DNA of 63,118 nucleotides from Methanobacteriota archaeon (GCA_002722695.1 PBMS01000046.1:1-63118); one strand, 5' to 3'. Shown: positions 10,612 to 51,300, counted from the stretch's first letter. The notes: generated by a model not told the origin, from the sequence alone. Made by a program: numbers and translations.

Positions 10612-10679
10612 TGTCCGAAATGGGTGCCGTTGAGACCTCGAACCCAGCCTTCAAACAACCATGCAGTTGCGTGATTTTA

Positions 10680-10752
10680 CGCCGATTGTGGGGCTCGAAC
10701 CCACGACCTTGGGATTAACAGTCCCACGCTCCACCAGCTAAGCTAAATCGGC
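10680..10752 (-). tRNA. tRNA-Asn (anticodon GTT)
   Basis: The minus strand reads GCCGATT-TA-GCTT-AGCTGGTG-GAGC-G-TGGGA-CTGTTAA-TCCCA-AGGTC-GTGGG-TTCGAGC-CCCAC-AATCGGC-G. This folds as a full cloverleaf with the GTT anticodon in a 7-nt loop. No CCA is encoded. Confidence 0.9.
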
Positions 10753-10775
10753 AAAGTTGGCGACAGGCCTCCCCT

Positions 10776-12110
10776 TTATGACGCCTTCGTTGATGCAAAA
10801 TCAATCACTTCGAGCAGTCGGTGCACATGCTCAGGTTCAGATTCACCAACGGTGCACATTGCTTTGAGTGACACCAGTTCTGATTCCTTCAACGGACGGT
10901 TGTGGTGAAACGTGAACAGTGGATCGTTCTTGGCGATGTTCGTTCCCTTCGATGCCTCAATGAGAAAGCCCACGTGCGTATCGATCGGGTCGTCCAACTC
11001 AAAGCGGCCAGCTCCGTGGTTTCGTGCGAGTTGGGCCATCGCCATGGCGTCGTAACTGGAAACGTAGCCTGAGTGCTCAGCGAGGATGGTGGTCTGATGA
11101 ACCGACGACCCAAGCACCTTTTCTGGCGTTGAAATCAAGGTCTTCGCCGTCAACGGTTCGACCCCCTGTTGAACGCACATGGCTCGGAAGACATCGAGCG
11201 CCTCTCCGTTGGTCAACACCAACTCCATCCGCCTCCTCCCTTCGGCGAGGTCGACATCCTCGAAGGACATCGCCAGCAATTCAGCCCCCTGGAGGACAAC
11301 AAGTTCCCGAGTGTCCGCTGAACCTTCGCCCTGCAGGACCTCGATGCTGCCGAGGACTTCCAGTGCATTACCGATGTGAGATCCGATGGGTTCTGACATG
11401 GTCGTGAGTTGCGCAACGGTTCGTATGCCGAGTCCTTCGGCTGTTTGGACCATCGAATGAGCAAGTGCTCGTGCCTCATCCACGGTTTTCATGAACGCGG
11501 CCGACCCCGTTTTGACGTCGAGCACCAACGATTGCAGCCCCTCAGCAGCCTTCTTTGAGATGATGGACGCCGTGATGAGCGGAACGCTGTCGATGGTGTC
11601 CGTCACATCCCTGAGTGCGTACAACACGCCATCCGCAGGCGCGATGGCGTCGTTTTGGACCGCAATGCAGCAACCAACAACGTCGACGGCGGCGGTCATG
11701 GCATCTGGACTCAGCGCACAGGTGAACCCCGGAATCGACTCCAATTTGTCGATGGTACCCCCGGTGTGTCCCAGGCCCCGTCCAGCCAGCATGGGGACGC
11801 GGCACCCGCACGCCGCCAGCGCAGGCGCGAGGATGAGTGACATTTTGTCACCCACCCCACCGGTGCTGTGTTTGTCCACAACCGGGGGTCCCGCCGGCCA
11901 AGTCAGGCGCGCTCCGGAATCGATCATCGCCTCGGTCAAAATAACCGTGTCCGCAGTGGTCATTCCGTGTTTGTGAACAGCTTTGAGCCAACGCGTCGCG
12001 GTCTCGGTTGAAATCGTTCCGTTGGCGACGTTGGCTGCAAAGATCTGCAGTTCCTCAGCGGGTTGGGATTCACCTCGCAGGACCGCTTTGATGAGGTCTT
12101 CCACATCCAT
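10776..12110 (-). CDS. deoA: thymidine / pyrimidine-nucleoside phosphorylase
   Basis: VDKHSTGGVGDKMSLILAPALAACG, LGHTGGTIDKLESIPGF and a length of about 440 aa match the thymidine phosphorylase family. This is shorter than the roughly 500-aa archaeal AMP phosphorylases. A GAGGGAG SD overlaps the upstream stop. Confidence 0.85.
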   Translation of the reverse strand: MDVEDLIKAVLRGESQPAEELQIFAANVANGTISTETATRWLKAVHKHGMTTADTVILTEAMIDSGARLTWPAGPPVVDKHSTGGVGDKMSLILAPALAACGCRVPMLAGRGLGHTGGTIDKLESIPGFTCALSPDAMTAAVDVVGCCIAVQNDAIAPADGVLYALRDVTDTIDSVPLITASIISKKAAEGLQSLVLDVKTGSAAFMKTVDEARALAHSMVQTAEGLGIRTVAQLTTMSEPIGSHIGNALEVLGSIEVLQGEGSADTRELVVLQGAELLAMSFEDVDLAEGRRRMELVLTNGEALDVFRAMCVQQGVEPLTAKTLISTPEKVLGSSVHQTTILAEHSGYVSSYDAMAMAQLARNHGAGRFELDDPIDTHVGFLIEASKGTNIAKNDPLFTFHHNRPLKESELVSLKAMCTVGESEPEHVHRLLEVIDFASTKAS

Positions 12111-12119
12111 CTAGCTCCC

Positions 12120-13067
12120 TCAAATCAAACCGATTTCTTTGAGGCGTTGATGCAGGTAATCCCCTGCGTTGATGGAGGCGTAGTTTGCCTCCCCTCCCGT
12201 CATGGCCACGAAGTCAGGGTGAGGCGTAAGGTCAACCTCGTTCCGGGGGTGGACGAACATCGGCATGGAGTAACGACGCGTGTTGGCGTCCTTTGGATTC
12301 ACGACGCGATGGGTCGTTGATTTGAACAAACCGTTGGTGAGGTTCTGCAGCATATCGCCTGAGTCAACAATGATGGCGTCTTGATCTCCCTTCACTTGAA
12401 TCCACGTGCCGTCGTGGTCCATGACTTCCAAGCCGTCTGCGGTTGCTGTGACCAAGAGCGTGATGAAATTGATGTCCTCGTGAGCAGCGGAGCGCACGGC
12501 GCCTTCCGGGGTGTTTTCGCTCAGAGGGGGATAGTGAATCATGCGCATGATGGTGTTGCCTTCGGTCGACATGTTTGAGAGCCAATCTTCCGGTTTCCCA
12601 AGGTAGAGCGAACAGGCTGAGAGCAGGTGATGCGCCAGCGTTTCCATACCGGAAAAAAGCGTTTCCGTCACGTCTTGAAACCCGCTTACATGGGCGGACG
12701 GCCAGATGTTTTGCGGGTAGGTCGGGACGGTGCCATCAAGCGGGTAAGGCCGGCCGGATTGCCAGAATTCCTTGAGGTCGGGTGCGGGGTTGTCCTTTGC
12801 ATGTTCAACACCAAAGGCGGTGTAGCCACGCTGGTGGGCCATCTCAGGACGTAGATACATTCGTTTGGTTTGTTCATCCATGTCGAAGAAGGCATCGCAT
12901 TGCTCGTAGGTGTTGTCGATCAGTTCCTTTGGTATGCCGTGATGGGTAAGCGCAAAGAAACCGATGTCCTTGAGAGCGTCGCCCACCTCGTTGACGAAGC
13001 GTTGTCGCTCATTCTGATCGGCCGAGGTGGCCAAACGAAAGTCGATGGAGGGTATACTCCGAGGCAT
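12120..13067 (-). CDS. 2-oxoglutarate/Fe(II)-dependent oxygenase (isopenicillin-N-synthase-like)
   Basis: The N-terminal IPSIDF...FGFFALTHHGIP segment is DIOX_N-like. The facial triad is HEDINFITLL (HxD) plus STTHRV, followed by RYSMPMFVHP (2OG-binding RxS). Confidence 0.85.
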   Translation of the reverse strand: MPRSIPSIDFRLATSADQNERQRFVNEVGDALKDIGFFALTHHGIPKELIDNTYEQCDAFFDMDEQTKRMYLRPEMAHQRGYTAFGVEHAKDNPAPDLKEFWQSGRPYPLDGTVPTYPQNIWPSAHVSGFQDVTETLFSGMETLAHHLLSACSLYLGKPEDWLSNMSTEGNTIMRMIHYPPLSENTPEGAVRSAAHEDINFITLLVTATADGLEVMDHDGTWIQVKGDQDAIIVDSGDMLQNLTNGLFKSTTHRVVNPKDANTRRYSMPMFVHPRNEVDLTPHPDFVAMTGGEANYASINAGDYLHQRLKEIGLI

Positions 13068-13073
13068 GCGGCC

Positions 13074-13838
13074 TCAATCCCTGTATGCGTTCAACTTCGC
13101 CAGCAAGCGCAGGGTCTCGATGTAGATCCAGATAACGGAGATCAGGATGCCGAAGGCGGCGTACCACTCCATGAGCTTCGGTGCGCCGTTGCGAGTACCG
13201 GATTCGATGAACCCAAAGTCGCTGATGAGCGTCAATGCTGCCACGACCAAAATGAAGCACGTCAGGCCGATACCGATGGGCCCAGAGCTGTGGAGGAAGG
13301 GCACGTCGTATGGCGAGAACAATCCGAGAACGAAGGAGGTGAGGTAGAGGAGCATGATGCTCACGACCAGTCCAGAGATGATTTTGTTGAAAGCGGGTGT
13401 GGGGCGGATGATTCGAGAAGCGTACATGACGTACATCGTACCGGTGATGGCCATGGTTCCAAACACGGCTTGGAGCGCAATGCCGCTGTAGGCCGTCAGT
13501 TCAAGCGCAAGCGACATCGACCCGACGGCCATGCCTTCGAGGAGCGCATAGAGACTCATCAAGGTGGCAGGGTTGGCGGGGCGAGTCAGGAAAATCACGA
13601 GGGCCAAGATGAATCCACCGACAAAGCCAATGAGCATGAAGGCGGAAATGTACAGGCCTCCGTTGCCGTTGTTGATGGCGTTCATGCACAACACGGCCGA
13701 GACCAGAGCGCTGGCGATCGTGAGAGAAAGAAGGTAGCCGATTTTCTTCATGCTGCCCTCGACCGTCATTCGGTCGAACCCAGTGAGGTTTGGCCAGAAT
13801 TTGTTGGACAGGACGGGGTTGCTGCTGCGGATTTCCAT
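13074..13838 (-). CDS. Bax inhibitor-1/YccA-like membrane protein (BaxI_1-type)
   Basis: MEIRSSNPVLSNKFW... N-terminus followed by about 7 hydrophobic helices. The start was trimmed to ATG 13838, because the track start at 14051 overlaps the upstream giant gene. There is a 32-nt gap to the upstream stop. Confidence 0.7.
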   Translation of the reverse strand: MEIRSSNPVLSNKFWPNLTGFDRMTVEGSMKKIGYLLSLTIASALVSAVLCMNAINNGNGGLYISAFMLIGFVGGFILALVIFLTRPANPATLMSLYALLEGMAVGSMSLALELTAYSGIALQAVFGTMAITGTMYVMYASRIIRPTPAFNKIISGLVVSIMLLYLTSFVLGLFSPYDVPFLHSSGPIGIGLTCFILVVAALTLISDFGFIESGTRNGAPKLMEWYAAFGILISVIWIYIETLRLLAKLNAYRD

Positions 13839-13870
13839 GGCTATCAGCGTTGTCTCGCCGAGGTCCTGTT

Positions 13871-16800
13871 TCAATGTTGCTCTGTTCGTGTGTGTTGAGC
13901 GACCTGTTCCTGATAGTAGGTGACCAGCTGGTCCATCGTCCATCCTTGAGCGAGGTACTGCTCGACCATTTCTGCCGTCCAGCCCGGCACCTTGGCCAGC
14001 ATTTCTGGTGTGGCGCCCGAAACGCTCGCATTCAAGACCGGCTGCTGCCAACCTTGGTTGTCAACCGTTCCACCGCTCACTTCGGCAAACGCAGCTTCGC
14101 TGATGGCGTCCTTCACGTTTTCGGATTCGGTGCGCATGCCGCGAAGAATGACGTAGGCTCCGGCCGAGAGCACCAGCGCCAAGATCATCAGAATCAGGAA
14201 GAACGACTCAGCAGAATCGCCCGCACTGCTTTCTGTGCTGTCGCCAACGAGTGCTGCGCGTTGTTCGGAGGAACATCCTTCCGCATCTGTGGCCACGCCA
14301 ACGGGCGTGTCGGGGCACTGGTCGGCTCCGTTGAGAATGCCGTCGTCGTCGAGATCGGTGTCCACCACGATCGTACCGGTTCCGCCGGTGTCGTCCACGG
14401 GTTGAATGTCCACACCAGCAAGGTCACAACCAAGCACCTCGCTGTCGTTGGTCCCGTCGAGGTCGGCATCCCACTGCGTGAGTGCGGCGAGCGGTTCAAC
14501 ATCGTCCATGCTGGAGTTAAGGGCGGTTGCTAGGGCCCATGCGACCTCAAGGTCGTCGGTGATGCAATCCCCGTCCGTGTCGGCGTTGTTGGGGTCGCCA
14601 CCGTGAAGTTGTTCGGCGAAATTGCTCAACCCGTCTTGGTCGCTGTCCATCATCGATTCGTCCATGAGAGCATCGCCCACCACGCTTCGTTGGGTTCGGT
14701 TGAGCCCGTGGGCAACCTCCCACGCATCGGTGAGTCTGTCCTGGTCGGTGTCGGTGGCGTTGTCCAATCGATGCCAGTCTTCGTACCATGAATTCATGTA
14801 AACGCCTGCAATCGCTTCGCTGGAGAGCACAAGCCCCATCTCTCGGTTGCGAACAAGCGCAGAGTCGCCCCAATTGATGGAGGACACGAGAACGTGTTCA
14901 CCGTCAACGATGACGCCTTTGTTGTGCAGTTTCGTGACGACTTCATCGCTGCTCATGACGATGGCCGCCGTGTCGTAGCCGAGGGTGTGGTTCCATTCCT
15001 CATTGAAGCGGTCGACCACGCTCTGAATGTCCTCGTCAAGGTAAGCGCCGTTCAAAATAAGCCGCAACCGAACGTTGCGCTGCGCCGCTTTCTCGAGCGA
15101 TTCAAGAATGGGGTTTTCCCCCCATCCCCACGACCAGTCCATGTCAAGGTACTGAAGTGAGAGTAAAATTTCCTCGTCGGCGCTGTCCAAAACAGCCACC
15201 AGATCATCGATGCAGTTGTCCGGGCACACGAGCAGTTGTGCGTCCACGTCGCCTTGGATGCTCGCAGCCGTCTCGCCAACGATGGCGGACGCCGATGGCA
15301 TCGTCCAGCCGGTAGGAGCATCGGTGGCCACGACCGGTGTGATGTGCTCGCGGGCTTGATTTTCATCGAAGGCAAGATGAGCAGCCACCATGGTGGCCAG
15401 GCCCGCATCGTCCACGATGACGCCCCAGTCCCGATTCCCAGCTTCACCGGGCATCGGATGGGACGAAGATTTCCAATTGCCTGAACCGACCCAAACGCTG
15501 GCGTTGTCCTTGACCGCAACTTTGCTGTGGATGTACGCATAGGGGTTCTCGCCCGTGTCGCCAAACCAACTCACCTGTGCACCGGACGCAAGGAGTTCGG
15601 TGGCCATGCCACGCTGCGTGTCGAGGTCGTATTGATTCCACCAGCTGTCGCCGTAATCCAGCACGACGGTCACCTCGACGCCTCGGTTTTGTGCATCGAT
15701 CATGGCTTGAACGAGGTGAACCTCGTGAAGCAGGTACATGTGAACGTGGAGGGAACTCGAAGCGTCGTTGATCCATGCCAGCAGGTCCGTTAGCCCGTGT
15801 TCAGGTCCCAGAAGCGGGGTCACCGATGCTGTCGTGCTGATGCTTGTGTCAATGCAGAACGTGCTGCCGCCCAAACGACTCCACTGCTCGTGCCAGTCGG
15901 CCACCGTGTCGGTGTCGGGCGTGTCTCCGCAGCCGCTTCCACGGAGGTAAATCAAATTGTCAAGGTTGGCCAGAGGTTCGGCCAAGGCGATGCCGTTCCA
16001 CCCGGGAACGGACACGGGCCCGTTGCCGTAGACGATGGTGTCGACCTCAGCACCCGACCCGTCCAACAGTTGTAGGGCAGCACCAGAATTGGGGAAGTAG
16101 AAATTCCGGTCAAGTGCCCCGTCGGCGTCGACCACGTTTCCGTCTTCGTACACCCTGACGGCGTCTGCATCGTTGGCGAGAAGCACGCTTGAGCCCGGTT
16201 GAATCATCAGGTTGCTGACGGTGGCGTTGTAGGAGCTGAGCGAACCGGTTGTGGTGCGCATCGTCCAACCGTTGAGCACCGCCAGTTTCTCGCCTTGGTT
16301 GCTGATTTCGATGAACTCCATGTCGCTGGAGATGTCCGTTGAGGCCGACGGCATGAAGCGTGTAAATCGCAAGTCGTCCTTGGTGGCGAAGTCCGCCGGG
16401 TTGGGTTCGGCTTGACCGGGTGTTGGCCAGAGTGCATGTTGCCAATCATCGCTGTCTTGCTCCCCCGGCATGAGCGTCTGGCAGTCCGTGATGACCGTCC
16501 AAGAGGCGCCGTCCACAGAACCTCCATCCGGGTGGAGAAGATCAAAAGCGTCGCCAAGTCCCGTGAGAATGTACTCGTCCATGGTGAACACGGCGCGTTC
16601 GTCGGGGTTCAGCAGAACCTTGGCGGTGTGATTGCCCTCGGTCCAGAGGCTGTCGAGGCGCATGAAGCGTCGTTCACCCTCGGCGTTGATCACCGACCAC
16701 CGACTGATGTTGAGAGGCGTGGCACCGGTGTTGTGAACTTCGACCCAGTCCTCGGTGGGTTGGATGGAGTCGTCGTTGCAGTACGGGAGGACTTCGGTGA

Positions 16801-18757
16801 TGGCAAGGTCGGTGGAACCGGTGTAGGGTGCCCAAACAGGGTTCACTTCCCCTGGGGTTACCCACGCTGACAAAATCCAATTTCCGGTGGCGTTGGCGGC
16901 GTCGGGTCCAACGCCGGCGTGCGTGCTGTTGGGGGCGACGAGGGATTCGCCTTCGACGGTGTCGGACCACGAAACGGTGTCAACGGCGGCTCCGTTGATG
17001 TCGACCAGTCCGATGGAATCCGATGAGGTGTGTTTGAGGTAGAAACTGCTTGTACCGTTCAACGCGATGAGCACGGCTTCTCCGCCTTTGACGACGGTTG
17101 TGTCCTGCAACGGCATGTTGAACTCGTGCAGGGTCAGCGAGCGTGAAGCCGCTTGAAGTTTCCAACCCGCAACATCAACGTCCATCGTTCCGTAGTTGTA
17201 AAGCTCTATCCATTCACCCATCGGCCACATTTGGCTGTCGGAGCCGACGGCGTCTGGAAGCAGCTCAGAGAAACGGACGGTTGTGGCCGAAGGCATGCTT
17301 CCCGGTTCGGGCTGCCCGGGCGTCTTCCACGCAGCAGGGGTCCAAGAATCGGCTGGGTCGCTTCCTCGAATCAGCGCCATGTCCTCTCCGTAGTCGGTGG
17401 TGTAGTCGGCGGTGTCCACGACAGTTCCCGTCATGTCTCTTAGGAAGACGTGGTTGTAATTGTCCCAAAGTTGTGTAAAACTCGTAAACTGGACCAATCG
17501 TCGACCGTCGGGGTCGATGAAGGTCGCCCCTTGCGTGGTGTTGAACACGAGGGTGCCCGGGTCGATGTGGGTGATGTTGCCCAGCCCGTCCATGATGCTC
17601 CACCCCATCAGGTCGATTGAGTTGGTGCCAGTGTTGTGAATTTCGACCCATTCGCCGTCCGGGAATGCAGCACCGTCGTTGGTGGCGTTCGGGAGGATTT
17701 CCGTAATATGGACGTCTCCAACCTGTCGTGCCATCAGTTCCATCGGCAACGGGTTCATGGCTTCGGGGGTCGGGTAAGGTGCGTTGACCCAGGGTGTGTT
17801 TGGCTGACCTGCGTCCATCAGCGCAAAGCCTTGAACGGTTGACGTCCACGAAATCTCCTGGGACTTGCTGCCGTTGGGCCATTTCAGCGTGATGCTTTCG
17901 ACGCCGTTGTTGAGCAACCCGTAGCCTGTGGTTGAATTGACGGCGACGATCCGATGCTGGCCGGGGCTGATGAACATGCTCTGAGATGCGTTAACGAGGT
18001 GTGCGCTGTTGAACGGGAATGCATGACCAGCGGCGTCCTCAATGCTGTAACCCGTCAAGTCGATGTCCGATGTTCCCGTGTTCAGGATTTCAATCCATTC
18101 ACCGCCAGGCCACGATTCATTGTCGTCGCCGGGCCACGAATTGGCCATCACTTCGGTCATGATGATGTCACCCGGGATGAGGTTGTTCGAAACCGTCGCC
18201 GTGTTGACTTGACCCGGTGTCGGGTTGTTGGTTTGAACCCAGTTTGCGGTGGCGCTGCTTGGGTCTTGCTGGTAGCTCTTGCCGGATGTTACGCTTCCCC
18301 ACGTGGCCTGGTGGAGGTTGTTGTTGTTGCTGTCCACGAGGGTCATGGACATCCCGGTGTTGGTCATGTAAAAGCCGGAAAGTCCGTTTCGAGCGATAAC
18401 GACGTACTCCCCAGCGCTGATGGTCCATGTTGAGGCGTTGCCACTCTGGTAGCCGACGATGGTGGTTGAATTGAAATCCAAGCTTTGCGATGCGCTGTTC
18501 GTGACCTTCCATCCCGTCAGGTCCACGTCAAGGGTTCCGCTGTTGTACAGCTCCAACCATTCGCCACCGGGGTAGGTGGCGTCGTCGTACCCGTTCGGAT
18601 TTGGTATCACTTCATTGATGCAAATGGAGCCGGTGCACGCCGTTGACCGACCCGCCGTGTTGACACTCGCTTCAGAGGGCAGCGTGGTCAACAACGGGGA
18701 GGTCAGCGAAAGCAAAAACAAAACGATGAGGCTGGAGGCGGTTAGGGTCTTTTTCAT
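13871..18757 (-). CDS. membrane-anchored surface protein: signal peptide + 6 lamin-tail domains + double-HKD phospholipase D/nuclease module + TSP3-like Ca-binding repeats + TM + cytoplasmic tail
   Basis: Signal peptide MKKTLTASSLIVLFLLSL. There are six LTD cores: GGEWLELYN, GGEWIEILN, DGEWVEIHN, MGEWIELYN, TEDWVEVHN and DMEFIEISN, each followed by a ...L.GW.. segment. The HKD motifs are YIHSKVAVKDNASVWVGSGNW (nt about 15470-15529) and LHNKGVIVDGEHVLVSSINW (nt about 14860-14926). D-rich repeats include DTDQDRLTDAWE, DSDQDGLSNFAE and DTDGDCITDD. The TM helix is FFLILMILALVLSAGAYVIL. The start was trimmed from GTG 18766 to ATG 18757. Confidence 0.9.
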   Translation of the reverse strand: MKKTLTASSLIVLFLLSLTSPLLTTLPSEASVNTAGRSTACTGSICINEVIPNPNGYDDATYPGGEWLELYNSGTLDVDLTGWKVTNSASQSLDFNSTTIVGYQSGNASTWTISAGEYVVIARNGLSGFYMTNTGMSMTLVDSNNNNLHQATWGSVTSGKSYQQDPSSATANWVQTNNPTPGQVNTATVSNNLIPGDIIMTEVMANSWPGDDNESWPGGEWIEILNTGTSDIDLTGYSIEDAAGHAFPFNSAHLVNASQSMFISPGQHRIVAVNSTTGYGLLNNGVESITLKWPNGSKSQEISWTSTVQGFALMDAGQPNTPWVNAPYPTPEAMNPLPMELMARQVGDVHITEILPNATNDGAAFPDGEWVEIHNTGTNSIDLMGWSIMDGLGNITHIDPGTLVFNTTQGATFIDPDGRRLVQFTSFTQLWDNYNHVFLRDMTGTVVDTADYTTDYGEDMALIRGSDPADSWTPAAWKTPGQPEPGSMPSATTVRFSELLPDAVGSDSQMWPMGEWIELYNYGTMDVDVAGWKLQAASRSLTLHEFNMPLQDTTVVKGGEAVLIALNGTSSFYLKHTSSDSIGLVDINGAAVDTVSWSDTVEGESLVAPNSTHAGVGPDAANATGNWILSAWVTPGEVNPVWAPYTGSTDLAITEVLPYCNDDSIQPTEDWVEVHNTGATPLNISRWSVINAEGERRFMRLDSLWTEGNHTAKVLLNPDERAVFTMDEYILTGLGDAFDLLHPDGGSVDGASWTVITDCQTLMPGEQDSDDWQHALWPTPGQAEPNPADFATKDDLRFTRFMPSASTDISSDMEFIEISNQGEKLAVLNGWTMRTTTGSLSSYNATVSNLMIQPGSSVLLANDADAVRVYEDGNVVDADGALDRNFYFPNSGAALQLLDGSGAEVDTIVYGNGPVSVPGWNGIALAEPLANLDNLIYLRGSGCGDTPDTDTVADWHEQWSRLGGSTFCIDTSISTTASVTPLLGPEHGLTDLLAWINDASSSLHVHMYLLHEVHLVQAMIDAQNRGVEVTVVLDYGDSWWNQYDLDTQRGMATELLASGAQVSWFGDTGENPYAYIHSKVAVKDNASVWVGSGNWKSSSHPMPGEAGNRDWGVIVDDAGLATMVAAHLAFDENQAREHITPVVATDAPTGWTMPSASAIVGETAASIQGDVDAQLLVCPDNCIDDLVAVLDSADEEILLSLQYLDMDWSWGWGENPILESLEKAAQRNVRLRLILNGAYLDEDIQSVVDRFNEEWNHTLGYDTAAIVMSSDEVVTKLHNKGVIVDGEHVLVSSINWGDSALVRNREMGLVLSSEAIAGVYMNSWYEDWHRLDNATDTDQDRLTDAWEVAHGLNRTQRSVVGDALMDESMMDSDQDGLSNFAEQLHGGDPNNADTDGDCITDDLEVAWALATALNSSMDDVEPLAALTQWDADLDGTNDSEVLGCDLAGVDIQPVDDTGGTGTIVVDTDLDDDGILNGADQCPDTPVGVATDAEGCSSEQRAALVGDSTESSAGDSAESFFLILMILALVLSAGAYVILRGMRTESENVKDAISEAAFAEVSGGTVDNQGWQQPVLNASVSGATPEMLAKVPGWTAEMVEQYLAQGWTMDQLVTYYQEQVAQHTRTEQH
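14762..15830 (-). other. duplicated PLD-family (HxK(x)4D) catalytic module
   Basis: There are two HKD motifs in one chain. HKD1 has H at 15527-15529, K at 15521-15523 and D at 15506-15508. HKD2 has H at 14924-14926, K at 14918-14920 and D at 14903-14905. Each is followed by the GS.N / SS.N segment typical of the PLD superfamily. Confidence 0.8.
15990..18628 (-). repeat. array of six lamin-tail-domain (LTD) modules (protein-level tandem repeat, about 140 aa period)
   Basis: A recurrent pattern of [IV]x[IF][TN]E[VIL]xP..........P.GEW[ILV]E[ILV].N.G....[DN][ILV].GW is seen six times. Confidence 0.8.
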
Positions 18758-18775
18758 GAGGTTCACGTCCGATGT

Positions 18776-20278
18776 TCAAATGAAGCCAAAACTGTCGAAT
18801 TTTTGGGCAAAAGTGTAGATCATGATGGGCACGAGAATAATGCCCATTCCGTGTGAGCGACGGATGCCGATTCGTGGCGGGAGCAGGCCGATGATGGTGC
18901 CGACGATGAGGACGCCAATCCCGACGAATCCTGTTGAGAGCCAAACGAGGGCGACGACAAAGAGGATGACACCCATCACCATTTGCTGCAGTGGAATGGC
19001 AGCGTGCAATCGAAGCATCCCCATTCCAACATAGCGCATCATGGGCATGGCAAGAAGGCCAGCGGCGAGGGTAACCGCCAACAAGCGAATAAAATCGGAG
19101 GTTGGTTCAAGGGAGGACCACGTCTCGATGGGGTACATCATCTTCAACGCCAAGGTTGCACCTGAACGGGAACGGCTGATGATGTAGAGGAAACCGAGGA
19201 CCATCACGGTGACCGCAGTGTTGGTCGCCGAAAGGATGGCGATGATCTCCAAATCCTGTTTGGTCTGGGGGCCTTCAACGCCCTCTTCGGCTTCGGCCTT
19301 TGCGATTTCCAGGAGTTCATCGTCGCTCAGTTCAGTCAACCGACGTGTTTCCCAATCCATGCCGAAACCTTGCTTCCCCTGGGCTTTTGCCGCCAGGTTC
19401 CGCCCGCCCATCACGAGGACGGTGGCTTGCGAGGCGGTCATTCCGGGCAGCACCCCCATGGAGGCACCAGCCACGCTCGACCAGAAGCAGGGGACGACGA
19501 GGGGTCGGGTGGGCGGCAGGGCCCAATTTTCACGCTGTGGGGGGAGGTGCGAGGTCGTTGCGTAGATGTCGAGGAGATTGGCAATACCGAACAAACCGGC
19601 CAAGCTTGGCAGCAGCAGGCTGGCATCGGGCATGCCGATCGGGGAGCGTGCGGGCAAGGTGAACACACCCCATCCATACATGCCTGCCAGCAGGAAGAAG
19701 GCCGTGGCTGCGAGAAACCCTGCAAAACGCGAGTCGCGACCGAGCACGCCTCGAGTTGATTTCTGCATCCACATCGGCCAGTCGAGCCGGGTGGTCTCGG
19801 TGGCCAAGAGCAAAAGCGAGATGGCGAGGAGGACGAAGGGAAGGACGGATCGGAGGTCGTCGTACCATCCCAGTTCTGGGCCAAACGCGATGCGAGCCAA
19901 CACGATCAACGGCAACGACAGGAACAGCCCCAATTGCGAGCCTCGAGCCGACCAGGCAACGCCTCGCGCAGCATTACCGGAAAGCAGCATGCGATGGCCG
20001 GGAAGCAGGGACAGCGCGGTGTCCCCATCCGGTGCCCCAATCAGAGCCGACGGTATGTAGTTGAGGAAGGTGTGAACGGTGCCCGTCGACACGATGATGG
20101 CGGCCACCGAAGCAAGAGGTATGCCCAAATCCAACAGAGCGGGCGAGAGCGCCAACAAAATCAGGGCGACGTTGTTCACGTGAAAACCAGGAATGAGTCC
20201 GGTCAGTGAACCCAGCATCACGCCGAAGAACAAAGCGCCCAACAACCATGCAAGGTCCAAGAAATACCCCTCGAGCAT
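18776..20278 (-). CDS. TctA-family (DUF112/COG1784-like) polytopic membrane protein
   Basis: GSLTGLIPGFHVNNVALILLAL...IPSALIGAPDGDTALSLLPGHRMLLSGNAARGV resembles the TctA/DUF112 signature. There are at least 10 hydrophobic helices with a central soluble loop. It lies 9 nt upstream of the LTD-PLD gene. Confidence 0.65.
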   Translation of the reverse strand: MLEGYFLDLAWLLGALFFGVMLGSLTGLIPGFHVNNVALILLALSPALLDLGIPLASVAAIIVSTGTVHTFLNYIPSALIGAPDGDTALSLLPGHRMLLSGNAARGVAWSARGSQLGLFLSLPLIVLARIAFGPELGWYDDLRSVLPFVLLAISLLLLATETTRLDWPMWMQKSTRGVLGRDSRFAGFLAATAFFLLAGMYGWGVFTLPARSPIGMPDASLLLPSLAGLFGIANLLDIYATTSHLPPQRENWALPPTRPLVVPCFWSSVAGASMGVLPGMTASQATVLVMGGRNLAAKAQGKQGFGMDWETRRLTELSDDELLEIAKAEAEEGVEGPQTKQDLEIIAILSATNTAVTVMVLGFLYIISRSRSGATLALKMMYPIETWSSLEPTSDFIRLLAVTLAAGLLAMPMMRYVGMGMLRLHAAIPLQQMVMGVILFVVALVWLSTGFVGIGVLIVGTIIGLLPPRIGIRRSHGMGIILVPIMIYTFAQKFDSFGFI

Positions 20279-20287
20279 GCGTTCACC

Positions 20288-22039
20288 TCAGGATTGATTG
20301 TTCACGTGCTCTTCTCGGTCGGAGACACCGTCGTCGTTGCTGTCTTCGGAGGTCGAGGACGTGCCGATTTGATCTTCAAGCGTGTCGCCCAGTCCGTCGC
20401 CGTCGCTGTCCAGCACATCGGCTTGGTCCAGAGTGTAGACCAGACTCATGCCGTCGTCGCTCTGCACTTGCCGCAGGCGGCCGGACCAGGTCATGGACTG
20501 GTCGAGGTGGTACTCGTCGACCCCGATGGCTTGACTCTGGAGGTTGAGAACCACCGAATCGTTGGAACCTTCTCGGACGAGGTGCCACTGGCCGTCCGTT
20601 TCGATGGCTTTGCCGTTGAGCAGAACGTTTTGGTCTCGGGCATAACTCCACTGGGTCGCTCCATCGTCCCAGAGGAGGGTCCGGGATGAGGGGACCGTTC
20701 CAAGCGTGTAATCGTGGACGACCAGTCGTATTCGCATGTCCTCGTCGTCCCACGACACCGAGACGTTGGCGATGATGTTCTGGCCGGTCTCCAGCCAGGC
20801 CGTGCGGGGTCCGGGAACGGACACCGCCACGGTGGTCCAACCGGGTGTGTAGGCCGCAGCGTCCACAAAATACGCTTCTTCATTTTCAACGCCGGGCTCC
20901 ACGGCGTACTTGACGTAGGCCGAGAGCGTGTAGGTCGCTTCCGGGTCGGCCACCATTCCGACGGGGTCCGCCGACAGCATGGCGAGGAGTCGGATGGGTG
21001 TTTCTGGATTGATGAGCGTCGGGGAACCACCCTCGTTCGCGTCGATGCACCAACCGTTTTCGGATTCAGACCACAGCAGACGACCTTCCACGGTTTCCAC
21101 AGTGTTGTGGACCGAAGTTGCCTCGTCCCTCGCTCGGTCTGCATCGCTGGGCAGCAAGCAAATGCTGGTTCCGCTTGGCCCGTACAGACGCCAGATCTCC
21201 GACCCGTTGGCCAGCGTCCCGGTCATGGTGACGGTCTGGCCGGATTGGTAACTCCACGTCGCCTCAGCGTTCCAGTCGAGCTGGGGAGGAGAAATGAGGT
21301 GGTTCCTGTCGACAAGAATCTCAGGCCCTTGGACCTGCAAACTCCACCGGAGGTCCCGCGTTTGATAATTGAGGGTGCCCGTGACTTCGATCTTGGAACT
21401 TGCTTCGATCCAGTCACCGATGGCCGAACGGATGATCAGGTGCATTTGGTGCTCAGAATTGCCGTAGTTGGGATGATCGCCAAGGTATGCGGACGTGAAG
21501 GTGGAGTCGGGTGCAATGGCCTCTCCAATGAAGCCCGTGAGGCTGATCACTTTTCCGTCGTAGGCGGCCGGATTTTGAGCCACATCAGCGATCGCCAGCC
21601 TCTCCACCTCGGGCAGGTCGGCCGATGTCCATTCCATCGCTCCCGCTCCAAGCGACTGAATCCATATTCTGCCGTCGTACTCAATGACGTCACCCATGAC
21701 GGTCACCGTTGTACCAATGGGCGGCATTTCGCCCGGACGATACCATCGGGATTCCACCACGCCTGTTCCATCGTCAATGATGGCGTCAACCCGATCGTCC
21801 CCCGAGGCGTAGGGGTCTTCCACCCAAGAGATGAGAGTGCCCTCAACCTTGACGACTTCGTTTTTGTATTCCAGCAACTGGCGGATTTCAATGACCTCGG
21901 GCTCGCGGACGTAGGCGTACCAGTTGAGCGTGGCCACGAGGAACATGGCAAGGGCAAACATCACCCACAATTGCTGGCCCCGCGTCTCGGGGTCGTCGTT
22001 GGTGATGCGGTCCATAAGTCCCTTCACCGCATCGGCCAT
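20288..22039 (-). CDS. hypothetical N-terminally anchored extracellular protein with OB-fold-like modules and C-terminal TSP3-like acidic repeats
   Basis: N-terminal TM LWVMFALAMFLVATLNWYAYV. Repeated V.V.G.L....D....D...DDGTG....R......G..V.V.G.V..Y.G patterns are tRNA_anti/BOF-like. The C-terminus reads DSDGDGLGDTLED...DSNDDGVSDREE. There is no recognisable catalytic motif. Confidence 0.65.
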   Translation of the reverse strand: MADAVKGLMDRITNDDPETRGQQLWVMFALAMFLVATLNWYAYVREPEVIEIRQLLEYKNEVVKVEGTLISWVEDPYASGDDRVDAIIDDGTGVVESRWYRPGEMPPIGTTVTVMGDVIEYDGRIWIQSLGAGAMEWTSADLPEVERLAIADVAQNPAAYDGKVISLTGFIGEAIAPDSTFTSAYLGDHPNYGNSEHQMHLIIRSAIGDWIEASSKIEVTGTLNYQTRDLRWSLQVQGPEILVDRNHLISPPQLDWNAEATWSYQSGQTVTMTGTLANGSEIWRLYGPSGTSICLLPSDADRARDEATSVHNTVETVEGRLLWSESENGWCIDANEGGSPTLINPETPIRLLAMLSADPVGMVADPEATYTLSAYVKYAVEPGVENEEAYFVDAAAYTPGWTTVAVSVPGPRTAWLETGQNIIANVSVSWDDEDMRIRLVVHDYTLGTVPSSRTLLWDDGATQWSYARDQNVLLNGKAIETDGQWHLVREGSNDSVVLNLQSQAIGVDEYHLDQSMTWSGRLRQVQSDDGMSLVYTLDQADVLDSDGDGLGDTLEDQIGTSSTSEDSNDDGVSDREEHVNNQS

Positions 22040-22108
22040 GCATCTGCGTGCAAACGACCATGCTTAGGCGTTGTCTTCTTCGTCGCTGGTCGGGTTCCCG
22101 AGAAGGGC

Positions 22109-22114
22109 TATAAA
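22109..22114 (+). promoter_or_regulatory. candidate TATA box (TATAAA) for the HD-domain gene
   Basis: GGGCTATAAAGAAACG lies 25-30 nt upstream of the ATG at 22139, which matches archaeal leaderless promoter geometry. It sits in the 99-nt divergent intergenic region. Confidence 0.4.
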
Positions 22115-22138
22115 GAAACGACTGGACGGCAAGCCATC

Positions 22139-23440
22139 ATGAACGGTCGAGACCGCGTGATTCGCGACGAGATTCACCGGGACATTTTGGTCCCTGCTGC
22201 TCACGCCGTCATCATCGACACGCCTGAGTTTCAGCGTCTACGAGCCATTCAGCAACTTTCGACGTGCGAATACGTCTTTCCAGCCGCCACCCACAATCGC
22301 TTTGCCCATTCCCTTGGCGCCTATCACCTTGCAGGATGTCTGGCTGCGCACCTCAACGATGTCCACCCCGGTCTGATTTCCGAAGACGATGAGGAACTCG
22401 TTCAACTTGCAGCGTTGCTTCACGACATCGGCCACCCACCCTATTCCCACCTCCTCGAAACCCCCCGGGTCTACGCCACCTTTCGCTCGCACGAGGCCTG
22501 GGGTCGCGACATTTTGGAATCCACATCCACCGCCATCGGCGTCGCGGTGCGAGAGGTGCTGGGAGAGCGCCGTTTGGGTCGACTGTTTGCACTGATGGAC
22601 GGGGCTGATGAACACGATGGGCAACCCATTCCCAGATTCATGAAGGAAATCGTCAGCAGCCAACTTGACGTGGATCGGATGGACTACATGATTCGGGATC
22701 AAGCCAACACGGGTGCACAAATTGGAGGCTTTGACAGCGCACGCGTCATCCGAGCCCTCCGGGTCGGAGACGATGGACGCATGTACGTGAAGCGGTGGGG
22801 GCTACCGGCCATCGAAGCCTACCTCGTCACACGGTACCACATGTACCAGCAGGTCTACTTCCACAAGGTCAACATGCTCACGCAGGCTTACCTCGTCAAC
22901 ATGCTCGAGCGAGCCAAGGAACTGGCAACGACCGGGGACCTCGTGGTCTCAAAGGAACTTGAGCACATGCTGCTCAACGAAGCGTTGTCCCCCGACGAGT
23001 ACGTCCTGCTCAACGACGCTCACATCAAGGTCGCTCTCCCCGCTTGGGCCAACCACAGCGATGCAAAACTCTCGGGCTACGCCGGCCGGCTCCTGGCGCG
23101 AAAGAATTTCCACAAATCCCTCCGCATCGACCATCTCACCGTGGAAATGTGCGATGTGGTCATCCCGCGGATAGGTGCATCTCTTTCCGAGATGGGCTAC
23201 GATGTTGAATTCGACTTGATTCAGGCGACCATCCGAAAGCGAGGCTACCTCCCCTACAACGGCGGTATTTTGCTGGAAGACGGGCGAGACGCATCCGAAC
23301 ATTCGGCGTTGATTCAATCGTTGGCCCAGCCTCACGAGCGGTGTCTCATCTTCGTCCCGGAAGCCGTTCGGGACGAATTGGAGCGGAACGTTCGTGAATG
23401 GATCAAACCGTCTCAATCATCCCTTGCTCAATTTGACTGA
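22139..23440 (+). CDS. HD-domain phosphohydrolase (SAMHD1/COG1078-like, putative dNTP triphosphohydrolase)
   Basis: TPEFQRLRAIQQLS...THNRFAHSLGAYHLAG, LLHDIGHPPYSH and DVDRMDYMIRD are the three conserved blocks of this HD family. The first 475 codons of the track ORF (20714-) are an antisense shadow of the 20288-22039 gene. Confidence 0.85.
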   Translation: MNGRDRVIRDEIHRDILVPAAHAVIIDTPEFQRLRAIQQLSTCEYVFPAATHNRFAHSLGAYHLAGCLAAHLNDVHPGLISEDDEELVQLAALLHDIGHPPYSHLLETPRVYATFRSHEAWGRDILESTSTAIGVAVREVLGERRLGRLFALMDGADEHDGQPIPRFMKEIVSSQLDVDRMDYMIRDQANTGAQIGGFDSARVIRALRVGDDGRMYVKRWGLPAIEAYLVTRYHMYQQVYFHKVNMLTQAYLVNMLERAKELATTGDLVVSKELEHMLLNEALSPDEYVLLNDAHIKVALPAWANHSDAKLSGYAGRLLARKNFHKSLRIDHLTVEMCDVVIPRIGASLSEMGYDVEFDLIQATIRKRGYLPYNGGILLEDGRDASEHSALIQSLAQPHERCLIFVPEAVRDELERNVREWIKPSQSSLAQFD

Positions 23441-23481: not shown

Positions 23482-23555
23482 GGGCCCGTAGCTTAGTTGG
23501 TTAGAGCGCCCGGCTCATAACCGGGAGGTCAGGGGTTCAACTCCCTTCGGGCCCA
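23482..23555 (+). tRNA. tRNA with CAT anticodon (elongator Met or Ile2)
   Basis: GGGCCCG-TA-GCTT-AGTTGGTTA-GAGC-G-CCCGG-CTCATAA-CCGGG-AGGTC-AGGGG-TTCAACT-CCCTT-CGGGCCC-A, 74 nt, a clean cloverleaf. It is not an initiator type, since it lacks the AGCGGG acceptor. Confidence 0.9.
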
Positions 23556-23650
23556 CCTCTTCAGTGGCTTGCAAGGTTGCCTTCATTTCGCACAACAGAC
23601 CCATAATGGTTATGAGGTGGGGGGGGTTGGGAAGAACGATTGGTGAGACT

Positions 23651-24586
23651 ATGTCGGCATGGAAGCGAGTCGCTGCTTTGATGGGAATTTACCTCTGTTC
23701 GCTTATGGTGGTCGCTGTTCCAGCGGCCGCACAGGTGTCCGGTGCTGCGGTTTCCATGACCTGTGCGCCTGGTCAAATCCAGGTCGAAGTCAAACCCGGT
23801 GCCACCCTCACGGGCTACACCACCTGCACGGTGTCCAACCCCACGGCCTATGTGGAAAAGGTCGCTATACAGGTCACCAGCGATGGATTGGCCACCGCCG
23901 CTCCCGGCGACATGTACGTTGGAGCGAGTCAGGAAGTTGATTTCCAAGTCGTCGTCCGAGCCAACCCCTACATGCAGATGCAATCCCGCCAGCTAACCGT
24001 CTCCGCCTCGGTGCAGGAAATTAACAACCTCCCACCTCCCAACACAGCTTCCTCGCAAGTCAACGCTCTGATCAACATCATGCAGTTCAGCATCGTCCAA
24101 GTTGAAGCGGTTGAACCCTTTGTCCAACTGATGCCGAAGACCGACAAGAACTTCCAGTTCAAGGTGTACAACTTCGGAAACCAAATCGACCGAATGAAAA
24201 TCGGCGTAACCGAGAACACTCGTGAAACCTTGGAAGAGGCCGGCTTCACCGTCAACCTCCCACAAACCGTGGTCACCATCGAGCCCAACACCGCTCCTGA
24301 AACCGCTCGCATCATGGTCCGCACACCCAAGAATCAAGGCTGGTCCGACGCCTACCACGTGCTCGAGTTCTACGCCGAGTCCGAGTTCGCTTGCCAGAAC
24401 GGCGGCTGCAACCGAGAGTCCCAGATGATCACCGTCTACGTTCGTGGCGTGTACCTGCCCGGCTTCGAAATCGTTCCGGCCATCTCCATGATTGCACTGG
24501 CTGGGGCCGTTGCTGGGCGTCGCTTCCTCAACACCGAAGAAGAGGGTGAGGAAGAGGCCTGGCGAGAATCGGCCCCCGGTCTCTGA
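23651..24586 (+). CDS. secreted hypothetical protein with PGF-CTERM-like anchor
   Basis: Signal peptide MSAWKRVAALMGIYLCSLMVVAVPAAAQ. The body is beta-rich. The C-terminus has LPGFEIVPAISMIALAGAVAGRR followed by an acidic tail of 21 aa. The start was trimmed to ATG 23651, which has GGTGAG 3 nt upstream. Confidence 0.7.
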   Translation: MSAWKRVAALMGIYLCSLMVVAVPAAAQVSGAAVSMTCAPGQIQVEVKPGATLTGYTTCTVSNPTAYVEKVAIQVTSDGLATAAPGDMYVGASQEVDFQVVVRANPYMQMQSRQLTVSASVQEINNLPPPNTASSQVNALINIMQFSIVQVEAVEPFVQLMPKTDKNFQFKVYNFGNQIDRMKIGVTENTRETLEEAGFTVNLPQTVVTIEPNTAPETARIMVRTPKNQGWSDAYHVLEFYAESEFACQNGGCNRESQMITVYVRGVYLPGFEIVPAISMIALAGAVAGRRFLNTEEEGEEEAWRESAPGL

Positions 24587-47475: not shown

Positions 47476-47955
47476 TCATTGCACGGCTTGTGGCCTGTCA
47501 AGGGATAAGAACGTCAATCCGTTGTCGTGAACCACCCAAATCCGGTCAACGCCTGCGAGGGGCACACGCCCTTCGTGGCTGGATGAGCCCGTCCCGCTCA
47601 GTGAGATTTCGGTGTCGAGTGGACCTCCCTCGTCGATGAGAATCAGGGCTGTATCGTGCAGTTCAAGCCAAAACAGAGACTCATCGGCTTCGGATGGCCG
47701 CCAAGCAATTTCCTCAGCATACGACACGTTTCCACCCAGTCGGCTTGCTTCATCCGCCCGCTCAACCGCCGCCGCAATGTCGTCCATGTTGGCTTGAATG
47801 GCTTCCTCGTTCCATCGCAGGCGTGTGTTGGTCTCGATGTCCCAAGCCCAGATGCTGAACATGCTCATCAAAAGGACGCCGAGTAAGAACGTGAAGATGT
47901 AACCGAGTTCGGTCGCTGCGGCACCGACGTCGCGGTTCAACCTTGTTCGCTTCAT
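47476..47955 (-). CDS. class III signal-peptide protein, TadE/Flp-like pseudopilin N-terminus
   Basis: MKRTRLNRDVG|AAATELGYIFTFLLGVLLMSMF has a basic leader, a Gly, then a hydrophobic helix with Glu at +5 and Tyr at +8. Its ATG overlaps the upstream stop (ATGA at 47952-47955). Confidence 0.65.
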   Translation of the reverse strand: MKRTRLNRDVGAAATELGYIFTFLLGVLLMSMFSIWAWDIETNTRLRWNEEAIQANMDDIAAAVERADEASRLGGNVSYAEEIAWRPSEADESLFWLELHDTALILIDEGGPLDTEISLSGTGSSSHEGRVPLAGVDRIWVVHDNGLTFLSLDRPQAVQ

Positions 47956-51268: not shown

Positions 51269-51276
51269 TTAGGCAT

Positions 51277-51282
51277 TCACCT
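51277..51282 (-). promoter_or_regulatory. Shine-Dalgarno AGGTGA for the first pilin-like gene
   Basis: The plus strand reads TCACCT and the minus strand AGGTGA, 8 nt upstream of the ATG at 51268. It lies within the 32-nt gap after the MBL gene. Confidence 0.5.
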
Positions 51283-51300
51283 TGAACGGTCGGAAACCGC

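Follow-up and report, generated by a model that had tools for sequence, protein, structure and literature searches.

A conserved gene block of Poseidoniales encoding a putative surface phosphodiesterase and a predicted tandem OB-fold protein, with TctA-type permease and thymidine phosphorylase genes

Gene content of the locus

We examined a stretch of 63,118 nucleotides (nt) of DNA (PBMS01000046.1), hereafter called the window, from a Poseidoniales (Marine Group II) archaeon; homologues of its proteins are named Poseidoniales or Poseidoniaceae. The subject of this report is a run of six minus-strand genes at positions 10776-22039. In the direction of transcription, the run starts with the gene of a 583-residue surface protein predicted to consist of OB (oligonucleotide/oligosaccharide-binding) folds (20288-22039). 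It continues with a TctA-family permease of 500 residues and several transmembrane (TM) segments (18776-20278; PF01970), and with a giant protein of 1628 residues (13871-18757) that combines lamin-tail domains (LTDs) with a phospholipase D (PLD) module (Pfam LTD and PLDc_2) and is predicted to be a type-I anchored surface hydrolase. The last three genes encode a Bax inhibitor-1 (BI-1)-like membrane protein of the BaxI_1 family (13074-13838; 254 residues, PF12811), a 2-oxoglutarate (2OG)/Fe(II) oxygenase of the isopenicillin N synthase (IPNS) type (12120-13067; 315 residues, DIOX_N and 2OG-FeII_Oxy domains) and a pyrimidine-nucleoside (thymidine) phosphorylase of bacterial type (10776-12110; 444 residues, NF004490). 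On the plus strand, and divergent from the run across a 99-nt spacer with two conserved A/T boxes (22040-22138), lies the gene of an HD-domain phosphohydrolase resembling the dNTP triphosphohydrolases EF1143 and SAMHD1 (22139-23440; 433 residues, HD and HD_assoc_2 domains). Our main finding is that the OB, permease and LTD-PLD genes form a constant group in Poseidoniales, and that this group may provide the cell surface with a phosphodiesterase, probably a nuclease, and a separate OB-fold partner.

Calling of open reading frames (ORFs) recovered the six genes at exactly the coordinates drawn in a first-pass annotation of this DNA. The gaps between them are 9 nt (OB protein to TctA), 18 nt (TctA to LTD-PLD), 32 nt (LTD-PLD to BI-1-like), 6 nt (BI-1-like to 2OG oxygenase) and 9 nt (2OG oxygenase to phosphorylase), the second being counted from the ATG at 18757. 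The LTD-PLD frame can be extended to a GTG at 18766, which lies inside the conserved Shine-Dalgarno (SD)-like sequence GGACGTGA preceding that ATG; independent gene calls start the gene at the ATG, which gives 1628 residues. The divergent placement of the HD gene, with the length and both coordinates of the spacer, also holds as annotated, and Pfam and NCBIfam profiles uphold the labels TctA, LTD-PLD, BI-1-like, 2OG oxygenase, thymidine phosphorylase and HD.

An anchored protein of five predicted OB folds

The 583-residue protein has a TM helix near its N terminus (about residues 22-44, by hydropathy), and we infer from its sequence that it is type-II anchored and extracellular. In an AlphaFold2 (AF2) model built from 17 family members, with a mean predicted local distance difference test (pLDDT) score of 79, this helix leads into five small beta-barrels (about residues 46-135, 136-245, 246-340, 341-450 and 451-545) followed by an acidic tail. 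Nearly all Foldseek matches of the model in the PDB are tandem OB-fold proteins complexed with DNA. The best are p204 HINab (3.6e-11) and RPA70 (1.5e-8), within listed E-values of 3.6e-11 to 1e-6, and further matches are LEF-3, RADX, CTC1, Teb1 and the anticodon-binding domain of AspRS; the first six of these proteins have a Foldseek probability of 1.00. In Pfam and NCBIfam the window's protein itself matches no family. Among ten diverse members of its family, seven weakly match PF01336, the OB-fold nucleic-acid-binding domain (best E-value 1.6e-4), two marginally match DUF4131, the OB domain of ComEC (E-value about 0.04), and two have weak matches to CBM_5_12. As modelled, the protein is a string of five OB folds and belongs by fold to a nucleic-acid-binding class; the OB-like modules proposed in the first-pass annotation are thus borne out by model, structural matches and PF01336 alike.

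Two cysteines are invariant in the family alignment. The acidic C-terminal tail carries two calcium-binding DxDxDG motifs of thrombospondin type 3 (TSP3), and the whole protein has a pI of 4.15. The family is tiny: at 50% identity, 1.84 billion representatives contain about ten clusters of full-length members, and the source names on these clusters are only Poseidoniaceae or the generic 'Euryarchaeota archaeon'.

A giant lamin-tail protein with a two-lobed HKD core

The 1628-residue protein begins with a signal peptide (residues 1-33), followed by six LTDs (about residues 40-950; Pfam LTD, 268 bits in six stretches) and a PLD core of two HKD lobes (about residues 985-1135 and 1185-1325; PLDc_2, 119.8 bits in two stretches). 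Each lobe has its motif of the form HxK(x)4D(x)6G(S/T)xN, found by regular expression as HSKVAVKDNASVWVGSGN at residue 1077 and HNKGVIVDGEHVLVSSIN at residue 1278, and across 21 orthologues, the most distant at 44% identity, the H, K, D and N never vary. Both motifs of one active site being intact, the sequence places the protein in the PLD (HKD) superfamily. Beyond the core lie acidic repeats of TSP3 type (about residues 1360-1500), then a C-terminal TM helix (about residues 1519-1541) and a predicted cytoplasmic tail of 87 residues, both by hydropathy. Like the tail of the OB protein, the ectodomain has DxDxDG motifs. This tail (13874-14134, minus strand) contains a repeated GWT..(E/Q)...Y motif, GWTAEMVEQYLAQGWTMDQLVTYYQEQ, which could link the surface enzyme to an intracellular partner.

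When a profile of the PLD core was compared with the PDB, the best matches were Nuc (1byr, 3.7e-15), Zucchini/MitoPLD (4ggj, 1.9e-13) and NucT (8.6e-13), and PLD1/2 and Streptomyces PLD came out at E-values of 0.002 or worse. In NCBIfam and PADLOC the models of DrmC and NucT outrank those of cardiolipin synthases, all of them staying below their curated cut-offs. The module therefore does not look like a lipid-type PLD, an outcome that the first-pass annotation had considered possible; it appears to sit in a minimal, nuclease-rich branch of the superfamily, and nucleic acid is its putative substrate.

The TctA-type permease

The 500-residue permease matches PF01970 with 144.7 bits and has no match in NCBIfam and no relative in the PDB. 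Domains of TctB or TctC are absent from the neighbouring genes, both in the window and at the distant loci described below, so that the block does not constitute a tripartite TctABC system. A search for homologues listed matches of at least 82% identity and brought no new gene context. Across loci (L007-L174) the permease is 80-99% identical where the identity of the OB, LTD-PLD, BI-1-like and phosphorylase neighbours is no more than 44-60%. Its rate of change is thus that of a core essential gene, set among neighbours that evolve fast. In two lineages (L170 and L172) a cytoplasmic loop of the permease is about 100 residues longer.

Phosphorylase, oxygenase, BI-1-like and HD proteins

The phosphorylase exceeds the NCBIfam cut-offs of NF004490 (440.4 bits against 269) and TIGR02644 (423.3 against 409.05), and reaches only 190 bits with the AMP phosphorylase model, for which the cut-off is 535. 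It has all three Pfam domains Glycos_trans_3N, Glycos_transf_3 and PYNP_C. By these sequence matches it belongs to the pyrimidine-nucleoside/thymidine phosphorylases of bacterial type. The BI-1-like protein matches PF12811 with 204.8 bits.

The best PDB matches of the 2OG oxygenase are the uncharacterised bacterial proteins 3oox (184 bits) and 3on7; thymine dioxygenase (thymine-7-hydroxylase, T7H) comes fifth with 98 bits. As a candidate for a thymine-7-hydroxylase of the fungal type the protein was rejected and is at most a weak lead, since the residue differs at four of the six substrate-contacting positions (Ile for Tyr217, Gln for both Asn87 and Glu122, His for Asn294). The other two, Arg190 and Phe292, do have equivalents here, as they also have in the other IPNS-type relatives aligned. 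To our knowledge, a prokaryotic thymine-oxidising step beside a thymidine phosphorylase would be new. The oxygenase and phosphorylase genes are the tightest pair of the run, with a gap of 5-10 nt containing an SD site, and overlap in locus L172.

For the divergently transcribed HD protein, PDB matches are 2q14 (2.6e-44), EF1143 (2o6i, 2.2e-43) and, over the N-terminal 100 residues, SAMHD1 (about 1e-30). Together with its HD and HD_assoc_2 domains, these justify its earlier description as SAMHD1-like; the NCBIfam dGTPase models score far below their cut-offs.

Conservation of the gene order

We surveyed gene order in 80 loci from species-representative genomes, 80 metagenome loci and a set of distant lineages, reached through a search of representatives, an OB-family profile search and contig neighbourhoods; this gave 173 loci overall. 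In the species-representative set, wherever the locus is long enough, the genes for the OB protein, TctA, LTD-PLD, BI-1-like protein, 2OG oxygenase and phosphorylase come in the same order and on the same strand, with the HD gene divergent. Median gaps there are 9, 18, 37, 6 and 9 nt, and the metagenome loci agree with this order. The core order is kept in about 170 loci, down to an OB-protein identity of 30-39% and with a GC content of 36-52% in the distant lineages. Across these loci the OB, TctA and LTD-PLD genes are never split by unrelated genes, and wherever a locus extends far enough, the phosphorylase gene closes the run. We found no description of this block for Marine Group II or Poseidoniales in the searchable literature.

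Variation affects mainly the other genes. The oxygenase gene is missing from L088 and L089, and the BI-1-like gene from L172. L167 and L174 lack the BI-1-like gene and have an SSF symporter in place of the HD protein, and L168 has an additional BioY gene. L169 lacks both the BI-1-like and the HD gene and has, directly after the phosphorylase gene and on its strand, an extra gene (20044-20958 of that locus) for a MnuA/DNase-I-like nuclease: a 304-residue protein, signal-anchored at its N terminus and containing an Exo_endo_phos domain, best matched by MnuA membrane nucleases and weakly by ExeM/NucH. In L171 (8017-11227) two genes stand between those of TctA and LTD-PLD, a PhoU gene on the minus strand and one whose product joins a PHO4-family permease with a PhoU_div domain; for this permease NCBIfam leaves phosphate versus sulfate undecided. 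Both additions fit a nucleic-acid theme. The arrangement, whose absence from relatives would have counted against the first-pass proposal, is present in all those examined; the BI-1-like, oxygenase and HD genes vary, and the order is not specific to the six genes, as discussed below.

Two tRNA genes, identified with ARAGORN, frame the segment in the window: tRNA-Asn(GTT) at 10679-10753 (minus strand), 22 nt downstream of the phosphorylase gene and on the same strand, and tRNA-Met(CAT) at 23482-23557 (plus strand), downstream of the HD gene. Both flank the HD-to-phosphorylase segment in 10 of the 13 loci checked, which represent every lineage sampled, and in the remaining three only tRNA-Met was found. 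Where the HD gene has been lost, tRNA-Met lies directly upstream of the OB gene.

Further out, the region of purD, CarS or CARDB genes, two unknown genes, the HD gene, the block itself and an S8 peptidase gene is collinear throughout Poseidoniales, and the gene of an STT3 giant is among the collinear flanks. Beyond the HD and tRNA-Met genes, the plus strand of the window encodes a 'choice-of-anchor T' surface protein (23564-24586; NF041740, 295 bits) and, next to it, a 410-residue protein without family match (24677-25909); both occur at this place in every Poseidoniales locus examined, with identities falling as low as 24-48%. The STT3 giant (29519-39064, plus strand) has 3181 residues, with an N-terminal STT3 domain (AglB-like oligosaccharyltransferase) and CarboxypepD_reg-type repeats, an unusually large fusion for an archaeal oligosaccharyltransferase; it adjoins purD in distant lineages too. 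A separate run of four minus-strand genes (47476-52113) shows 4-nt start/stop overlaps and strong SD sites. It encodes family-less proteins of 159 and 744 residues, a DUF7289 protein and a protein of metallo-beta-lactamase fold, and is divergent from the gene of a 1916-residue TSP3-repeat protein at 52302-58052.

Transcription and translation signals

Bacterial promoter logic does not apply here, because the host is a Marine Group II archaeon. In the window the general pattern is that promoter-proximal genes have no SD site and an A/T box near -30, and that internal genes have strong SD sites. The two boxes of the divergent spacer, both kept across species, follow it: about 27 nt before the ATG of the HD gene stands CTATAAAG (22108-22115, plus strand), and at a distance of about 23-30 nt from the ATG of the OB gene, likewise upstream, stands GCCTAAGC (complement of 22062-22069), its counterparts in other species reading ATAAGC or ATAAAC. 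Since neither gene is preceded by an SD site, both mRNAs are probably leaderless.

Within the run, SD-like sequences occur directly after the preceding stop codon at the genes of TctA, LTD-PLD, the phosphorylase and the 2OG oxygenase. The TctA site, TGAGGTGA, is at least 5 nt long in 67% of the loci and at least 4 nt in 99%, and in most species an SD-like GAGGTGA stands 5-8 nt before the TctA ATG. Sites of at least 5 nt are present in 41% of loci for the phosphorylase and in 28% for the oxygenase; for the BI-1-like gene the figure is only 2% of 58 loci. The spacer before this last gene, 25-47 nt long across loci, has instead a motif, AACATTGAAAC(A/G)GGACC, that overlaps the stop codon of the LTD-PLD gene about 25-40 nt upstream of the BI-1-like ATG, and that is kept across species even where the LTD-PLD stop codon lies further upstream. 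On the strength of this conservation we regard it as a candidate internal promoter with a TATA-like box (13862-13878, minus strand). Distant lineages repeat the promoter-like pattern at their LTD-PLD/oxygenase junction.

The short, conserved gaps and the SD-type coupling at the TctA, LTD-PLD, oxygenase and phosphorylase genes would suit a single transcript. The conserved promoter-like box, combined with the missing SD site of the BI-1-like gene, argues for two units, OB-TctA-LTD-PLD and BI-1-like-2OG oxygenase-phosphorylase. Judging from these signals, two transcription units are most likely, the second possibly including tRNA-Asn, and the co-transcription of all six genes, which the first-pass proposal calls for, is doubtful.

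A proposed role and its alternatives

We propose that the first unit starts from the TATA-like box about 25 nt before the leaderless OB gene, and that TctA and LTD-PLD are translationally coupled to it via the SD-like sites right after each preceding stop codon. This unit would place two very acidic proteins with calcium-binding motifs on the cell surface: a type-II anchored chain of five OB folds that holds a polymer, and a type-I anchored giant whose six LTDs carry a two-lobed HKD phosphodiesterase. The second unit, with the BI-1-like protein, the oxygenase, the phosphorylase and perhaps tRNA-Asn, would start at the conserved box in the LTD-PLD/BI-1-like spacer. Its constant member, the phosphorylase, would act in the cytoplasm, where it would cleave (deoxy)pyrimidine nucleosides to the free base and (deoxy)ribose-1-phosphate. 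The phosphodiesterase is most probably a nuclease, because its core is nearest to Nuc, Zucchini and NucT and because the surface nucleases ExeM and Hvo_1477, compared below, are precedents. The reading to which we give an even chance comprises a conserved phosphodiesterase at the cell surface that is probably a nuclease, an OB partner as a protein of its own, a co-expressed TctA permease and a probably separate phosphorylase unit.

A metabolic link between the two units, in which products of the surface enzyme would be handed over to the phosphorylase, is plausible, and the block fits the harvesting of extracellular DNA without proving it. The first-pass annotation had gone further, with a reading offered as speculative, in which the six genes form a single route for scavenging extracellular nucleic acids. 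Of this proposal the predicted surface pair of OB protein and nuclease-type enzyme is supported, the six-gene transcript is doubtful and the import step is unsupported. There is no basis for the latter: archaeal TctA proteins (arCOG04469) are widely conserved, usually stand-alone and predicted to carry carboxylates, which are also the known substrates of TctA transporters. Import of anionic hydrolysis products by TctA is possible, and would be without precedent. A complete DNA-harvesting machine would require that the OB protein captures DNA, the PLD enzyme cuts it, TctA imports the products with the OB protein replacing TctB and TctC, and the phosphorylase takes over, possibly with thymine oxidation by the 2OG oxygenase and a contribution from the divergent dNTPase. 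Its parts are not known to serve in this way elsewhere, and we consider such a machine improbable.

Besides the carboxylate specificity of TctA and the probable division of the run, several observations weigh against a nucleic-acid function shared by these genes. The operon-like packing, which had been singled out as a remarkable feature, is not unusual statistically: over the whole window the median same-strand gap is about 29 nt and coding density about 92%, and equally tight runs of mixed function occur, such as glycine-cleavage genes, or GMP synthase followed by an S8 peptidase. Tight spacing by itself is weak evidence in this genome. The entire region of 25-30 kb is collinear, its flanks being as syntenic as the six genes, so that conserved order does not single them out. 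The BI-1-like, oxygenase and HD genes can each be dispensed with by some lineages, the insertions of DNase-I-like and Pho genes are each found in only one of 173 loci, and domain scans of the block's genes revealed no nucleotidase, phosphatase or nucleoside transporter. All five OB modules are strongly acidic, with pI values of 4.1-4.5 and net charges of about -9 to -11, so that binding of a polyanion would be unfavourable unless divalent cations bridge the two. OB folds also bind sugars and proteins. As for the PLD core, it scores 46.7 bits with NucT models whose equivalog cut-offs are 211-351 (297 quoted) and 85.6 bits with the NCBIfam DrmC model, for which the cut-off is 133; the small HKD clade, moreover, includes reported lipid hydrolases, and Zucchini is deposited as a 'cardiolipin hydrolase'. 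Finally, the LTD of ExeM is dispensable for DNA degradation in vivo.

The spacing statistics, the synteny of the flanks and the independent losses of BI-1-like, oxygenase and HD genes equally favour the view that the six genes share no function and are adjacent by chance in a compact, collinear genome. So do the housekeeping-like conservation of TctA, normally a stand-alone gene in archaea, and the probable promoter that divides the run. We regard this explanation, the main rival of our proposal, as unlikely, though it deserves to be taken seriously. It does not account for the OB, TctA and LTD-PLD genes remaining unseparated in about 170 loci with SD-type coupling at 9-18 nt, for the coincidence that OB, LTD and nuclease-type domains are the domain set of known surface nucleases, or for the nature of the two independent lineage-specific insertions, a membrane DNase and Pho genes. 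The last of these would suit any phosphate-yielding substrate, and could also be cited for a different assignment, in which the PLD enzyme hydrolyses lipids or phosphodiesters in general and so obtains phospholipids or other organic phosphodiesters from particles and vesicles, the OB protein binds glycans or proteins, TctA imports a carboxylate or other anion, and the phosphorylase is unrelated. Many HKD enzymes are indeed lipid hydrolases, among them Zucchini/MitoPLD by their deposited names and 7e0m, deposited as 'Phospholipase', and the acidity of the OB modules, the weak CBM_5_12 matches in two of ten family members and the carboxylate substrates of TctA point the same way. Lipid PLDs and cardiolipin synthases, however, score far below Nuc and NucT, the LTD fusions of documented function are nucleases, the OB matches are of the nucleic-acid-binding class, and one lineage has a DNase-I-like nuclease in the run; we therefore rate a lipid or general hydrolase as quite improbable.

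Two further explanations keep a nuclease and change its purpose. In a competence-like uptake system, three proteins would divide the functions of ComEC among them. DNA held by the OB protein would lose one strand to the nuclease, and the remaining strand or its fragments would enter through the multi-TM protein. In ComEC a channel and a nuclease do go together with an OB domain (DUF4131), this domain is weakly matched in two of ten OB-family members, and haloarchaeal 'ComA' proteins combine an LTD with a metallo-beta-lactamase nuclease domain. These DUF4131 matches are marginal, however, TctA has a secondary-transporter fold for small anions, and the block has no competence channel domain, pilus or DprA-type genes, which makes DNA uptake of this kind very unlikely. 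An antiviral defence locus, pairing a DrmC-like PLD nuclease with a dGTPase-like, dNTP-depleting HD enzyme, is suggested by PADLOC matches to DrmC (up to 72 bits) and dGTPase (42) and by NCBIfam matches to DISARM DrmC and an anti-phage dGTPase (32 bits). All these scores are under the family cut-offs, and DrmA, DrmB, DrmE and methylase partners are missing from the neighbouring genes, so that the PLD protein is not assigned to DISARM DrmC. The locus is no variable island: it is fixed, part of the core and syntenic everywhere. The PLD module, flanked by a signal peptide on one side and a C-terminal TM helix on the other, is predicted to lie outside the cell. Defence is effectively refuted and keeps the slightest probability of all.

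Marine Group II, a group without cultured members, ranks among the most abundant archaea of the sunlit ocean, and its diet is known only by inference from genomes. Much organic phosphorus and nitrogen is present there as dissolved DNA, a major pool of both. Through a surface nuclease with an OB partner these archaea would gain concrete access to this pool. The complete DNA-harvesting machine, if it exists, would make them significant consumers of organic phosphorus and dissolved DNA in surface waters. If the linkage is only collinearity, the locus cautions that tight packing and conserved order do not define pathways in compact archaeal genomes.

Comparison with known systems

With respect to its permease, the block resembles TctABC systems and arCOG04469 in having a PF01970 protein, and most archaeal members likewise lack TctB and TctC. 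It differs in that an OB gene always lies 9 nt upstream, with an SD site between, and an LTD-PLD gene downstream. We know of no tripartite tricarboxylate transporter (TTT) system with an OB-fold partner or carrying nucleotides or nucleosides. The constant pairing of TctA with an anchored OB protein is thus a lead on the function of the large archaeal family arCOG04469.

The catalytic core finds its best profile matches in Nuc (Salmonella pKM101), NucT (Helicobacter) and Zucchini/MitoPLD, which it resembles in lobe size, about 150 residues per HKD, and in its intact motifs. Those enzymes have a single HKD and dimerise, whereas here two lobes are joined in one chain inside a giant surface protein.

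Regarding overall architecture, the closest counterparts are ExeM, Xds and NucH of Shewanella, Vibrio and Aeromonas, surface enzymes linked to calcium that have a signal peptide, one or more LTDs, OB folds, a nuclease-type domain and a C-terminal anchor. In ExeM of Shewanella, a signal peptide is followed by an LTD, a YhcR-like OB region and an EEP nuclease domain, and the C terminus anchors the chain in the membrane; the enzyme remains membrane-bound and breaks down DNA in the vicinity of the cell. Its catalytic domain is of EEP (DNase-I-like) type and accompanied by one LTD, in contrast to the two-lobed HKD/PLD core and six LTDs of the archaeal protein. The OB region of ExeM is part of the same chain, whereas the five OB folds described here are on a separate anchored protein encoded two genes upstream. 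ExeM is bacterial, and in the archaeal block a TctA-type permease gene stands between the OB and LTD-PLD genes. The NCBIfam ExeM_NucH model matches none of the window's proteins. With a PLD in place of an EEP domain and the OB folds on another chain, the LTD-PLD protein falls outside this family; the resemblance would be functional only.

An archaeal precedent is Hvo_1477 of Haloferax volcanii, a surface lipoprotein that fuses a staphylococcal-type nuclease (SNase) to an LTD and is required for the metabolism of extracellular DNA (eDNA). Both are surface-attached archaeal proteins with an LTD; in Hvo_1477 the nuclease is tied to eDNA as a nutrient, and in the LTD-PLD protein the nuclease role is predicted. 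Hvo_1477 has an SNase fold in a small lipoprotein with a single LTD, unlike the PLD core in a type-I membrane protein of 1628 residues, and it has no reported OB partner and no reported TctA or phosphorylase gene in its neighbourhood. At the level of loci, Candidatus Izemoplasmatales of marine sediment have 'DNA-degradation loci' that combine an LTD/nuclease/nucleic-acid-binding protein with transporters. These are bacterial, contain ABC and phosphate transporters, nucleotidases and phosphohydrolases, and are backed by DNA stable isotope probing (DNA-SIP), whereas the archaeal block is known from its genes.

From these comparisons, the archaeal block appears to share the functional logic of ExeM and Hvo_1477. 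Lamin-tail surface nucleases as such are already known from these two proteins; what would be new is the predicted PLD-type catalysis, the number of six LTDs and the separate OB protein, and the design of lamin-tail surface nucleases would thereby extend to a catalytic domain of PLD type.

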